Below, piece after piece: positions 31,648-45,775 of a stretch of 64,000 nt of DNA; the first letter of the stretch is position 1; every line of letters starts with the position of its first letter. The notes under the pieces were generated by a model, which was not told the origin of the DNA, did no database searches, and saw only the letters and a program-made list of their open reading frames with translations. The DNA lies in NCBI GenBank assembly GCA_021414235.1, contig JAIOOV010000003.1:37560-101559 (forward strand), in the 5' to 3' direction. The position numbers and the translations under genes are program-made. This DNA comes from Candidatus Parcubacteria bacterium (GTDB taxonomy: Bacteria > Patescibacteriota > Minisyncoccia > Phycocordibacterales > JAKFXT01).

Positions 31648-31794
31648 GAGTATTACTATCCTTTCTTTTGTTCCGTTCTAACCGTCCTTTCCCGGTACGG
31701 TGTCGGTCGCTCCAATTTAAGGTTTAAGAGCGATTACCTACTTCTTGCGAAGTATCGGCCGATCAGTCCTAGGCTTGCGCCCGGACATTTCAAT

Positions 31795-33289
31795 TTGAAT
31801 AATTCCACGAACAGCTTCCGCTACCCGTGCCTTGTTACGACTTACTCCCTGTCACCGAGCTTACCGTGATCCCGCTTGCGCGGGGCTTCGGGTATTCCCG
31901 GCTCCCTTGAGTTGACGGGCGGTGAGTACAAGACTTGAGAACGTATTCACCGCGGTATAGCTGACCCGCGATTACTAGCGATTCCGGCTTCATGGAGTCG
32001 AGTTGCAGACTCCAATCTGAATTGGGGCCACCTTTCTAAGGATTTGCTCCGGCTCGCGCCATTGCGTCCCGTTGTAGTGGCCATTGTATCACGTGTGTAG
32101 CCCAGGGTATCTAAGGGCATGCTGACCTGGCGTCATCCTCTCCTTCCTCCCCCGCAGCTACGCACCTTTCTTTTTAGAAAAGCTGCGCAATTGCGGGGGC
32201 AGTCTCGCCTGACACTTGAAACAGGCAACGAGGGTTGCGTTCGTTACCCCACTGAAGGGAACAGTTCAAACCACGAACTGACGACGGCCATGCACCACCT
32301 GTCTAGCCGCCCTTGTGAGGCGCTAAATCTTTCGGCTTAGCTTCGTCTAGATTTCTAACCCTGGTAAGGTTCTTCGTTTAACGTCGAATTAAACCACATG
32401 ATCCACCGCTTGTGCAAGTCCCCGTCTATTCCTTTGAGTTTTAACCTTGCGGTCGTACTACCCAGGCGGTTTTCTTAACGCGTTAGCTTCGCCTCTCAGA
32501 GGGTCGATTCTCCGAAAAGCCAGAAAACAAAGTTTAGGGCGTGGACTACTGGGGTATCTAATCCCATTCGCTACCCACGCTTTCGTGTTTGAGTGTCAGA
32601 AATGCGCCAGCATGCTGCCTTCGCTTTCGGTGTTCCCCATAATATCAACGGATTTCACCCCTACACTATGAGTTCCGCATGCCTCTCGCACTCTCTAGTC
32701 GTACCGTTTCCCCCGCAGATCCAGGGTTGAGCCCCGGGTTTTAACAGAAGACTAATACGACCACCTACACACCCTTTACGCCCAATGATTCCGGATAACG
32801 CTTGGGGCCTCTGTATTACCGCTCCTGCTGGCACAGAGTTAGGAGCCCCTTATTCATGAGGTACCGTCAATTACTTCTTCCCTCATAAAAGACCTTTACG
32901 TCCCGAAGGACTTCATCAATCACGCGGCGTCGCTCCGTCAGGCTTGCGCCCATTGCGGAAGATTCTCGACTGCGGCCACCCGTAGGTGTATGGACCGTAT
33001 CTCAGTTCCATCGGTGGGGGTCAGCCTCTCAGCTCCCCTAAGCGTCGTCGCCTTGGTAGGCCATTACCCTACCAACTAGCTGATACTGCGCAGGCTTCTC
33101 CAGAAGCGATAAATCTTTACTCTCGCGAGACTATCGGGAATTATCCTGCCTTTCGGCAGGTTATGCCCGACTTCTGGGTAAATTCCTACGTGTTACTACC
33201 TCGTCTGCCGTGGGTCTAACCCACTCGACTTGCATGCCTTATCCACGCCGCCAGCGTTCATCCTGAGCTAGGATCAAACTCTAATAAAA
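31795..33289 (-). rRNA. rrs: 16S rRNA (Parcubacteria-like, no anti-SD, not linked to 23S)
   Basis: AGAGTTTGATCCTAGCTCAG at the 5' end, AAGTCGTAACAAGG near the 3' end; ends approximate. Confidence 0.98.
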
Positions 33290-41784: not shown

Positions 41785-41815
41785 ACGATCTAAAATGAGT
41801 CATTGAATGCTTTAA

Positions 41816-41920
41816 CCTGGCGACTACCTACTTTCCCCTTGCGAGTATCATCGGCACTACGGTGCTTAACGGCTCTGTTCGGAATGGGAAGAGGTGTGGC
41901 CACCGCGTTAAATCACCAGA
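41816..41920 (-). rRNA. rrf: 5S rRNA (short, about 105 nt)
   Basis: TCTGGTG...CCCATTCCGAAC...GTAGGTAGTCGCCAGG; flanking CATTGAAT/ATTCAATG stem. Confidence 0.93.
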
Positions 41921-41939
41921 TTGAAGGATTCAATGTCAT

Positions 41940-42166
41940 AAGCAGGAAGAACGGGGAGGGGGAGCTAGTCCGAGAGTTAAGGATATCTCCTAAGGATCAA
42001 AGGTGGCGGTCTGGCACCCTAGTCATCCGAAGAAAAAACCACACTCTCAAGGATTCGCCGTCACACCCTCCCCTGCGCCGCACCACGTCTCTCCGGAGAG
42101 ACTTTCCCTTGCTCCTCAATCGCCATCGAGAGAAACAAGGGTAGGTACGGCATGTCTGCCCTGCTT
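41940..42166 (-). ncRNA. Unidentified multi-branched structured RNA in the 23S-5S spacer
   Basis: Closing stem AAGCAGG/CCTGCTT with at least five internal helices. Confidence 0.5.
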
Positions 42167-43171
42167 TTTAACGAATTCGAGTAAGTATGTCAAACAATGC
42201 GTGCTTCACAGATACCCTGACGGGAGTCGACGGATTAGTAGTTCTCGGCTCAACGCCTTGCGGCGCTTACACCTGAACCCTATCAACGTGATAATCTCTC
42301 ACGGGTCTAATAACGATTACTAATCTTGGAGCTGGCTTCCCTCTTAGATGCTTTCAGAGGTTATCCATTCCCGACATAGCTACTCTGCGGTGCCCTTGGC
42401 AGGACAGCAGATAGACCAGAGGTCAGTTCACTTCGGTCCTCTCGTACTAGAAGTAACTCTCCTCAATAATCAACGCCTGCAGTAGATAGGAGACCAACCT
42501 GTCTCACGACGGTTTGAACCCAGCTCACGTACCTTTTTAATTGGCGAACAGCCAAACCCTTGGAAGCTTCTCCACCTCCAGGATAAGATGAGCCGACATC
42601 GAGGTGCCGAACTCTGCCGTCGATATGAACTCTTGGGCAGAACTAGCCTGTTATCCCCAGGGTAGCTTTTATCCGTTAATCTCCGGCCGCATCTAACGCG
42701 GACCGTCGGTTCACTATGTTCCACTTTCGTGCTTGCTTGGCATGTACGCCTTGCAATCAAGCCACCTTGTGCCATTACACTATCGGCACGGTTTCCATTC
42801 GCGCCTAGGTGACCTTGATAAACTCCTCCGTTACTTTTTAGGAGGATATCGCCCCAATAAAACTACCCACCAGATACGGTCCCGTAACGTTTTTTCCGTT
42901 ATGGTTAGCTGGTGCATTCGCGCAGAATGGTATTTCACTGACGAGTCCAGAATGACCGAAACCATTCCTTCAACCTCTCCCATCTATTCTACGCAGCGCA
43001 AACGCAACAGCAATATCAAGCTATAGTAAAGCTCCTGGGGTCTTTTCGTCTAACTGCAGGTAACCGGCATCTTCACCGGTACTGTATTTTCACCGAGCTA
43101 TTCCCCGAGACAGTTCCCCAGTCATTACACTATTCGTGCGCGTCTGAACTTACCAGACAAGGAATTTCGCT

Positions 43172-43376
43172 CAACTATTCCTCTCAGTTGGACTCTCTCT
43201 TAACCCACTTTTGCAAGTTTGGGTCCGTGACGTTGGTCTCTCGTTGATCACGTTGGACTATCCGCGTATCTCGACGCGGTAGGTAGCTGGAAGTGCAATG
43301 ATTATTGTTTTATAACGGTTTACCTTTTTCTATAACGGTCCCAGTCCTTGTGCGCACGAATTACTTCGTTCGCACA
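43172..43376 (-). mobile_element. ORF-less group I-type intron at 23S position 1931 (E. coli numbering), 205 nt
   Basis: Interrupts CCUAAGGU|AGCGAAAU; follows a U and ends in G; S-like UAAGAGAGAGUCC with P8 and P9 hairpins. Confidence 0.8.
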
Positions 43377-43411
<35 letters not shown>

Positions 43412-44120
43412 CAGGGCTTGCAACAGTCACCACCACATCTTGCGACATGGCAACGCCGTTGTTTGACCTTCTGGCATTGGTCAAGTGTCACCCCCTATAC
43501 ATCCTCTTACGAGTTCGCAGGGAGCTGTGTTTTTGGTAAACAGTTGCCAGGGATACTTTCGCTGCGCCCGTCTTGCGACGGGAAGCCTTATTCCGAAGTT
43601 ACGGCTGCTTTTTTGCCGAGTTCCTTGGGGAAATTTCACTCGTTCGCCTTGCTCTACTCGAGCTGACCACCTGTGTCGGTTTGCGGTACGGTTTCCTGCA
43701 TATTGAAGCTTAGAAGATTTTCTTGGAAGGCTCTTCGGAAGGCTCCCCCGCTTGCGCAGAGTCGTACGAATGAACGAAGTTCGCATTTAAGCGAGTATCC
43801 CGGATTTTCCTGGGATACGCTTCTCATCACCCATAATGCAAATCCAATAATGCACCTTTCCTTGTGTCCTCCGTCCCTCCATCGCATATGCACGAAGTCA
43901 TGGAATATTAACCATGTGTCCATTAGGTGCGGCTTTCGCCATCCCCTTAGGCCCGACTAACCCTTGGCTGATTGTCATCGCCAAGGAAACCTCGGTCTTT
44001 CGGCGTGGCGCGTTCTCAGCGCCATTGTGGTTACTTGTGCCAACATTCTTACTTCCACACGCTCCAGAGTGGGTCACCCCTTCTCCTTCATCGCAGAGTG
44101 GAATATTCTCCTACCGCTCA

Positions 44121-44277
44121 TGAGTTCCATTGAGGAGGCGAAGTGATACCTTCGCCAAAGAACAATATTTGTTGGTCGCCCCGGATGGAGTAGAACCATC
44201 GACCCCTCGTTTGCACGAGTGCTCTTCTATCCTGAGCTACGGGACGACTACCCAACAAACTTCCTCAATGGAACTCA
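44121..44277 (-). other. Intervening sequence in 23S helix 45
   Basis: Perfect 16-bp stem TGAGTTCCATTGAGGA/TCCTCAATGGAACTCA between conserved flanks CTCCTACC and CAGTTTCGGT. Confidence 0.85.
44173..44246 (-). ncRNA. tRNA-like element lacking an anticodon loop, inside the 23S IVS
   Basis: CGUCCCG-UA-GCUC(AGGAUAGAA)GAGC-A-CUCGU(GCAA)ACGAG-GGGUC-GAUGG(UUCUACU)CCAUC-CGGGGCG-A-CCA. Confidence 0.85.
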
Positions 44278-44359
44278 CAAGCCCTCAGTTTCGGTACTAC
44301 GCTTAAGCCCCGATTATTTGCGGCGCGAAATCTCTTGATGAGTGAGCTGTTACGCTTTC

Positions 44360-44391
<32 letters not shown>

Positions 44392-44968
44392 TCATTGTCG
44401 GAGAAATAACACCTCCTTTAGTGCACTGAGCGTAGATTTAGGGACCTTAACCGGAGATCAGGGCTGTTTCCCTTTACACCTGTGAAGCTTAGCCCCCACG
44501 GTGTTACTGCCGAGTAATTACTCTTGGTATTCGGAGTTTGATAGGTCTCGCGAGCTTTCGCCCTGTCGAGACCTTCCAGTGCTCTACCCCCAAGAGATAC
44601 GCTCGACGCTATGCCTAAACATATTTCGGAGAAAACCAGCTATTACCAGGTTCGGTTAGCTTTTCACTCCAACCCACAAGTCATCCGAGAGTGTTGAACG
44701 GCTCACCGGTTCGGGCCTCCATCTGTCTTTCGACAAACTTCACCCTGCTCATGGGTAGCTCACCTGGCTTCGGGTCTGATGCATACTACTTAATTTCGCG
44801 CTATTCACACTCGGTTTCCCTATGGCTCCGGCCTCGCGGCCTTAGCCGTGCAGCATGCATCAACTCGTTGGCTCATTCTTCAATAGGCACGCCATGACGG
44901 TCTTGCGACCGCTCTGACTCCTTGTAAGCACACGGTTTCAGGTCTATTTCACTGTCCTCACTGGACTG

Positions 44969-45007
<39 letters not shown>

Positions 45008-45775
45008 ATTTGAGAGTATTTAGCCTTGCCGGTTAGTTCCGGCGGATTCACTCAAGCTTTTCGTGTCCTGAGTTACTCAAGAATGGCAAAAGAAAGTTGG
45101 CTGCATTTTCGGCTACAGGGCTGTTACCTTCTCGGGCGCTGCTTCCCAGCAGCTTCGCCTAATGCGCCAATTTTTAACTTTCCGAACATAAATGTTCATA
45201 TGCCACCTTACAACCCCTAGTCTCACTATCGGTCAACATTTGCATGCGGACCGAAAGTAAGACTAGGTTTGGGCTCTTTCCGTTTCGCTCGCCGCTACTA
45301 AGGAAATACTGTTTGGTTTCTTTTCCTCCAGGTACTGAGATGTTTCACTTCCCTGGGTGCGCGTCCTGGATCAAGTCGCAGGACTATAGCGGTTCACGCT
45401 ATAGGGTTTCCCCATTCGGAGATCTTCGGATCAAAGGTTGCTAGGCACCTCCCCGAAGCTTATCGCAGCTATGCTACGTCCTTCATCGCCTCTCAAATCC
45501 TAGGCATCCACCGTGTGCTCTTAATCTCCCGTCAGGAGATCTATGAATCACTACTTTGTTGTCTTACTTACCTGCCCCTCTCCATCGCCCTAAAAGACCC
45601 TTAAGCCCCGCTTGCGCGGGAAAAGGAGGCGGCGTGAGGGAATGAAGTTGTCAACGTTCGTGGATTCGGTCGATTCTCCCAACAAAAAACCCGCCTTCCG
45701 GCGGGCAGAGCAACTGGCTCGTCCTACCGGTTAACAGTGAGGTTTTTTGTCGTAGCCATAGTCAGAATGAGGGTA

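Follow-up and report, generated by a model that had tools for sequence, protein, structure and literature searches.

A helix-45 intervening sequence with apparently swappable cargo and a putatively shape-selected, non-decoding tRNA-like module in a Parcubacteria 23S rRNA gene

Helix-45 intervening sequences and the insert in the window

Intervening sequences (IVSs) in bacterial rRNA are generally regarded as near-neutral passengers that are degraded after excision. The closest described elements are the helix-45 IVSs of Salmonella, Campylobacter and Coxiella burnetii, which share the site studied here, are closed by a double-stranded stem, are patchily distributed, sometimes carry an ORF and are described as excised by RNase III without ligation (PMC8708148; PMC4990558). 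The Coxiella helix-45 IVS is described as rapidly degraded after excision, and known IVSs may be neutral (PMC4990558). In CPR bacteria, short non-intron inserts at the known IVS sites 23IS2 and 23IS4 were judged to be probable RNase III IVSs; the survey leaves them uncharacterised, and the word "tRNA" occurs 0 times in its main text (PMC11270868). The insert family described below is probably among them. The 16S-23S spacer also resembles the present locus in that tRNA genes and boxA lie inside the rRNA transcript; in the spacer, as in the leader, boxA is the nucleation site of rRNA antitermination (PMC8632103). A literature search found no description of tRNA-like elements inside bacterial 23S IVSs.

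The window is a stretch of 64,000 nucleotides from a Candidatus Parcubacteria genome (GCA_021414235.1, contig JAIOOV010000003.1, positions 37,560 to 101,559), and plain coordinates refer to it. Its 23S rRNA gene lies at 42214-45536 on the minus strand (RF02541, 2417.5 bits), and the Rfam alignment placed an insertion of ~146 nt in the loop of the helix after the GTPase centre, which we take to be helix 45. The flanking 23S helices are left intact and the whole insert folds as a single closed domain (-78 kcal/mol, z -7.76; 0 of 200 shuffles as good), with 58 of 59 pairs at a probability of at least 0.8. An earlier reading of this DNA from its sequence only (the sequence-only reading) had reported a perfect 16-bp stem in helix 45 (44262-44277/44121-44136). 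Folding and a stem check confirmed it and showed that it runs on into the native helix base, so that the closing stem measures 21 bp, its 5' strand (44262-44282, minus strand) comprising 5 bp of native helix-45 base and 16 bp of insert and its 3' strand lying at 44116-44136.

Both junctions are spanned by a 306-nt contig of DNA run X1, which covers 44061-44366 with 0 differences at a depth of 13.9. Since X1 is possibly the source sample, this contig counts as a second assembly and not as an independent sample. Contigs of RNA run X13, which shares its sample with X1, contain exact pieces at 43666-43968, 43945-44052 and 44037-44088; depth was 0 in the bin 44157-44277, and the uncovered part was not counted as evidence. 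Joints skipping 159-160 nt in contigs of X7 and X14 were ruled out as splicing, because other letters stand between the two sides; they come from other organisms' short helices.

In rRNA sense, the 5' strand of the stem is followed by a leader strand (44252-44260) that folds into 9 bp with the CCA and trailer (44167-44175), after which come a 4-nt bulge (44248-44251) and a U-A73 pair. The tRNA-like module itself (44173-44246, minus strand) was recovered by our own parser, by ARAGORN as a tRNA of undetermined type, and by RF00005 at 42.3 bits (gathering score 29), its anticodon loop being 3 nt shorter than in the model. It is built of an acceptor stem (44240-44246/44177-44183), a D stem (44234-44237/44221-44224), an anticodon stem (44215-44219/44206-44210) capped by GCAA (44211-44214), a T stem (44196-44200/44184-44188), A73 (44176) and CCA (44173-44175). 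The 74-nt cloverleaf proposed from the letters is borne out, with its C1-G72 and U3.G70 pairs, A73, CCA, GCAA loop and leader/trailer pairing all as claimed. Downstream lie a UGUUCUUU motif (44157-44164), which we liken to boxA and whose role is putative, and a 7-bp terminal hairpin (44137-44156) that folds directly onto the outer stem.

Measured against a decoding tRNA, the module has the cloverleaf with acceptor, D and T arms and lacks the 7-nt anticodon loop with U33. It has U at position 57, found in one of 33 family T loops, and its D-loop GG stands directly after A14, so the elbow may be imperfect. The CCA is buried in the leader/trailer helix, and because of this long pairing RNase P could be hindered at the window's module. 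The sequence-only reading mentions none of the bulge, the buried CCA, U57, the placement of the GG or the boxA-like motif. A tmRNA was ruled out, as the module has U3.G70 instead of G3.U70 and neither ARAGORN nor Rfam made a tmRNA call on the insert; a group I or group II intron was rejected, there being no intron family among the three Rfam matches up to E 10 for the 157-nt insert. The phage records that resemble the module (best 20 of 25 listed at E 0.07-0.8) show generic tRNA likeness only.

The genome that carries the window (G000; 695 kb, five contigs) has 43 intron-less canonical tRNAs in addition to intron-containing ones. A second copy of the module was not found in it, and its own tRNAs closest to the module are Arg(UCU) and Lys, with weak and near-equal scores. 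As every amino acid has a tRNA elsewhere, the element is not needed for decoding in G000. The genome encodes RNase III (PF14622, 139.6 bits), RNase P RNA and protein, NusB, a CCA-adding/poly(A) polymerase-family enzyme and ComEC, and a search for a Rho_N match found none. nusB and rnc lie on the same strand within ~600 bases (G000:C4:489981-491346; RNase III in the region C4:489981-490370), and three tRNA genes contain long anticodon-arm introns (C4:173484, 176460 and 329903), one of ~540 nt. The rRNA operon is split in the window (31793-33289 and 41815-45536), the 23S-5S part lying ~8 kb upstream of the 16S with ftsW/rodA-family, sugar transferase, epimerase and secD/secF genes in between. 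A separate insertion of 208 nt (43172-43379) sits immediately after 23S helix 69, a site that group I introns often occupy in CPR; RNA contigs bridge the insertion but possibly come from other organisms.

The insert family, its cargo and its exchange between genomes

A kinship sample of 29 helix-45 regions contained 18 plain hairpins of 30-33 nt, seven unrelated long inserts and four regions that share one stem type (G000, G001, G060 and G033). Collection by pattern scans gave 47 genome loci and at least 118 metagenome loci, 27 of which entered the set, plus further additions; the metagenome pattern mostly matched the 3' flank of non-CPR 23S genes. After duplicate removal the Paceibacteria insert family comprised 74 distinct copies, 66 of them complete, and one further member missed by the pattern (L055) stands outside the 74 counted.

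The family layout is mostly a 21-bp covarying stem, a boxA-like motif, a variable cargo and a stacked end hairpin. Of the 66 complete copies, 47 have a closing stem of 21 bp and 61 have one of 20-23 bp. In the outer half of the stem the pairs covary, with as many as 33 two-sided changes at a pair, and the inner part, UUCAU(U/A)GAGGA, is nearly invariant; the end hairpin is stacked on the inner end of the stem in 55 of 62 complete copies of at least 90 nt. Insert sizes range from 61 to >600 nt. By cargo, 24 copies hold tRNA only, 4 tRNA and ORF, 14 ORF, 7 are short or empty and 25 hold other structures; 28 of the 74 carry 34 clear tRNA modules and 46 carry no clear module. Other copies hold Shine-Dalgarno (SD)-led mini-ORFs or nothing, so a tRNA module is no constant component of the insert. 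No tRNA module was found in 12 long inserts outside the family. The comparison of helix-45 regions that the sequence-only reading had proposed thus yielded a covarying stem and recurring modules, together with something that this reading had missed: the window's element is one cargo of an exchangeable cassette. Unlike known helix-45 IVSs, the family has a fixed stem length, a conserved inner sequence, exchangeable cargo, a boxA-like motif and a stacked hairpin, and its cargo consists of tRNA-like modules, intact-looking tRNAs and small ORFs without Pfam match.

The boxA-like core was present in 39 of the 74 copies vs ~2 expected, and it is tied to tRNA cargo (24/28, vs 0/13 hand-picked ORF-only copies). 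Unlike the boxA of the spacer, the cassette motif is absent from the 23S leaders of 35 of 36 relatives; the cassette also differs from the 16S-23S spacer in lying inside the 23S coding sequence and in that more than half of its modules are non-decoding.

There are 19 copies that lack a clear tRNA module and in which the longest ORF takes up half of the loop or more; an SD-like motif is present in 13 of them. In G000 such a motif precedes 13 of 361 long genes, below the in-gene background of 25 (for a slightly narrower motif set), and CCUCC is absent from the 16S 3' ends of G000 and five ORF-cargo genomes (6/6). Loss of the anti-SD has been described in part of the Parcubacteria (PMC9297842). 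The SD-led cargo ORFs would be either recent imports or meant for other ribosomes. Searches of 11 cargo proteins against Pfam and PHROGs gave no match better than E 0.004 for any of them, and no 23S_rRNA_IVP; an alignment of five cargo proteins (16-25% identity) revealed no clear family. For the cargo of L067, the closest Atlas clusters score 0.86-0.88, the upper value being the best obtained, and contain unnamed proteins of bacteria and phages. As further observations, SD-led soluble mini-ORFs of 58-77 aa occur at L059:359-586, L067:383-586, L119:948-1121, L175:678-878 and L071:344-574, SD-led hydrophobic mini-ORFs of 30-60 aa occur in the inserts of L003, L053, L054, L069, L182 and L192, and the 16S 3' end without the anti-SD CCUCC lies at ~31795-31810 in the window.

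The cassette appears to have been exchanged between close relatives. G001, which belongs to the same genus as G000 and is 99.0% identical to it over 690 flank bases, carries a 61-nt helix that is empty; five bases of its 5' stem strand are changed, and the 3' strand has changed to match. Near-identical flanks around an empty and differently spelled stem argue that the cassette was swapped as a block. Sister pairs at 95-96% identity carry tRNA cargo in one member vs ORF cargo in the other. On a flank tree of 77 rows, whose frequencies are not prevalence as family rows were collected by motif, 14 changes are required to account for the 41 family rows, strong branches forcing three or more of these, and a single clade for the family was rejected (p-AU 2.3e-6). 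We infer block replacement via recombination in the conserved flanks, to which repeated loss could also contribute, and the cassette likely moves between Paceibacteria as a block.

The same stem was also seen at the helix-25 region of L137 and in the 23S of G388, where it lies inside a weak group I intron match (25.5 bits, below gathering). That intron match encloses the same cassette (L304, G388:C3:91737-91952), here with a boxA-like motif, an SD-like sequence, a short ORF and the end hairpin. A scan of 401 genomes with an 11-nt stem pattern gave mostly chance matches, as judged from a reversed control, and one inverted pair was kept (G388); no conclusion draws on G258. In viral contigs no convincing cassette was found among 83 pattern matches, 0 of which had a tRNA module and 8 a loose partner strand (1-2 mismatches in 16). 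General mimicry of rRNA by the cargo was not found, with 3 of 68 cargoes matching window rRNAs vs 0-3 in 20 shuffles; the sole strong mimicry case is the helix-45 insert of L047, where 24 nt of 23S helix 69 are copied almost exactly within a stem of the cargo itself (E 1.7e-6).

The tRNA-like modules of the family

Our parser recovered 43 of 43 host tRNAs with 7-nt loops and gave two matches in 222 shuffles at a score of 35. With the cut-off set at 38.5 we obtained the 34 modules in 28 copies and excluded 17 lower-scoring parses; Rfam independently gave 17 tRNA matches above gathering in 13 of 20 loci, which had been chosen for long inserts. Anticodon loops that differ from 7 nt (4-6, 8-9 or 24-79 nt) were found in 18 of the 34 modules vs 0 of 43 host tRNAs. 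The rest of the tRNA shape is kept: 695 of 714 stem pairs are standard (with the caveat that the parser requires intact stems), U54, U55 and A58 are invariant in 33/33 seven-nt T loops, and the D-loop GG is present in 31 modules. CCA is encoded in 27/34 modules vs 10/43 host tRNAs (p 1e-6), and the leader/trailer pairing is longer in modules than in host tRNAs (p 4e-7). If decay were uniform, ~6,650 modules would have been needed for 34 of this kind to remain, and the set amounts to 21 kb. Anticodon loops are hot spots for introns and integrase crossover, and this could raise the indel rate there without selection. Taken with the kept stems, T loops and CCA, the comparison supports selection on tRNA shape in the insert family, as the sequence-only reading had suggested from the paired stems of a single copy.

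Loss of decoding is not universal, since 16 of the 34 modules keep a 7-nt anticodon loop, several of them looking fully canonical; the modules thus range from intact-looking to non-decoding, and some copies hold two or three of them. The insert of G406 contains tRNA-Gly(UCC) and tRNA-Trp(CCA), which duplicate and yet differ from free-standing host copies, indicating a foreign origin. The possibility that insert tRNAs serve as sole isoacceptors was rejected for G406, the only genome tested, as separate Gly(UCC) and Trp(CCA) genes are present.

The discriminators of the 34 modules are A in 13, U in 10, G in 10 and C in one, the pairs 1:72 and 3:70 vary, and G3.U70 occurs in two, the window having the reversed U3.G70. 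With discriminators and first pairs so variable, no single synthetase fits the family. Eight modules, the window's included, combine C1-G72, A73 and CCA and keep their stems with loops of 4, 6, 7, 8, 9, 49, 71 and 79 nt; we take C1-G72 with A73 to be the proline identity set. The nearest relative of the window's module is in L033 (70% over stem positions). The module of the window is probably of proline-type origin, with an arginine-like D loop, and the modules appear to be derived from several tRNA species. The insert module of L185 has unusual D-loop ends like those of the window (AGGA ... UAGAA) around an inserted hairpin. Retention of acceptor stem and elbow with a dispensable anticodon is known from the tRNA-like domain of tmRNA, bacterial Y RNA and mascRNA/menRNA. 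Unlike tmRNA, Y RNA and mascRNA, the modules have no G3.U70 alanine identity, no tag frame and no sequence-conserved family.

Excision and possible roles of the cargo

The insert shares several features with RNase III-excised IVSs, namely the helix-45 site, a long closing stem, a host RNase III and a sporadic distribution. Cut positions were estimated with the E. coli RNase III consensus (score out of 32), which is weak by its own description (PMC4357697). On the family average, the best-scoring register, which gives a 2-nt 3' overhang, reached 18.0/32 vs at most 15.5 in 11 other registers. The window's own stem scores 14/32 in this register and 21/32 four bases further in, so the exact cut position in the window is uncertain. 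In the family register, staggered RNase III cuts are predicted at 44268/44267 and 44129/44128; they would free ~139 nt and leave ~13 bp of helix 45, a remnant close to the native helix of relatives. In the 23S processing stalk of G000, cuts in the same register would fall 6-8 nt upstream of the 5' end and 6 nt downstream of the 3' end defined by Rfam, and E. coli 23S processing cuts are given as +7/+7 (PMC8708148); the exact stalk motif was found in 2 of 38 23S leaders of relatives. We concluded that the insert is probably cut from the rRNA precursor by RNase III.

As to the fate of the excised RNA, our preferred reading, to which we give a little under an even chance, is that a horizontally exchanged cassette at the tip of 23S helix 45 is excised by RNase III and that the released, shape-selected tRNA mimic acts in trans as a tRNA-shape decoy. 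The cargo in the window, a tRNA-derived RNA without anticodon, would be released at ribosome-scale amounts, RNase P would trim the module, and the product would titrate proteins with affinity for the tRNA elbow or acceptor end; the cassette would be exchanged by recombination in the conserved rRNA flanks.

RNase P recognizes acceptor stem, T arm and CCA, and the anticodon arm is not among its determinants. The module might, unlikely as we think it, act in cis: following RNase III or alongside it, RNase P would cut its 5' end, thereby opening, processing or destroying the excised piece or backing up fragmentation of the 23S. The features kept in the modules are just these determinants, and G000 has both RNase P RNA and protein. 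This account is at odds with the 46 of 74 copies in which a clear module is missing (7 are short or empty, 14 hold only an ORF and 25 hold other structures), with the copies that hold two or three modules where one would do, and with the pairing of the window's CCA to the leader. The sequence-only reading had made a related proposal, a punctuation signal for fragmentation of the 23S; with the 21-bp stem constant and those 46 copies doing without a clear module, there is no need for such a signal.

We also consider it unlikely that helix 45 is a neutral or selfish safe-harbour slot, with tRNA pieces that are captured foreign tRNAs or integration-site relics and are paired for the sake of rRNA folding. 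The heterogeneous cargo and its fast turnover, the G406 insert tRNAs that duplicate and differ from host copies, and the dispensability of the element for decoding in G000 would all suit such a slot, as would the possible neutrality of known IVSs (PMC4990558). However, the unpaired T-loop bases, the D-loop GG (31/34) and the CCA would not be kept if pairing were all that was required, and the eight C1-G72/A73/CCA modules keep their stems despite varied loops, although their compensatory changes may predate capture.

Because the cargo ORFs are SD-led though the 16S of their carriers has lost the anti-SD, the excised RNA may target the ribosomes of a bacterial host on which the carriers live. 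Helix 45 of Paceibacteria might then be a slot, driven by the rRNA promoter and readily exchanged, from which tRNA mimics and small proteins are directed against another organism's translation machinery, a broader proposal that we regard as rather improbable.

Retention of the insert in mature 23S and its display on the 50S surface as a tRNA mimic, the second role offered by the sequence-only reading, are very unlikely. The single closed domain and the intact flanking helices would allow it, but the fixed 21-bp, RNase III-type stem with invariant inner sequence, the ORF cargo and the sizes from 61 to >600 nt fit excision better, as does the judgement that CPR inserts at 23IS2 and 23IS4 are probable RNase III IVSs (PMC11270868). 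Of the third role, a non-decoding tRNA released with ribosomes, release at ribosome scale stands as the most likely part, and aminoacylation of the released RNA as a non-ribosomal amino-acid donor is highly improbable: CCA is usually encoded (27/34) and eight modules, including the window's, have C1-G72 with A73 (the presumed proline set), but discriminators and the 1:72 and 3:70 pairs vary freely, G3.U70 is found in 2/34, and no one synthetase would serve them all.

A family with a standardised stem and exchangeable, shape-selected tRNA mimics or small ORFs would turn the rRNA gene into a mobile site of expression, with an RNA copy number unmatched in the cell. This bears on why IVSs persist and defines exact cut sites and substrates on which RNase III, RNase P and synthetases, enzymes that the G000 genome itself encodes, can be tested.

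Two arrangements outside the 23S recall parts of the cassette. The host tRNA-Pro(CGG) gene (G000:C4:444359-444432) has a 16-bp leader/trailer stem like those of the insert modules, and it is the only one of the 43 host tRNAs with a stem this long. In G406, the cargo layout is repeated outside any rRNA in the stretch examined (L242, G406:C5:101661-101903), where an odd tRNA-like gene of 93 nt is accompanied by a boxA-like motif, an additional CCA-bearing tRNA-Arg(UCU) and a hairpin.
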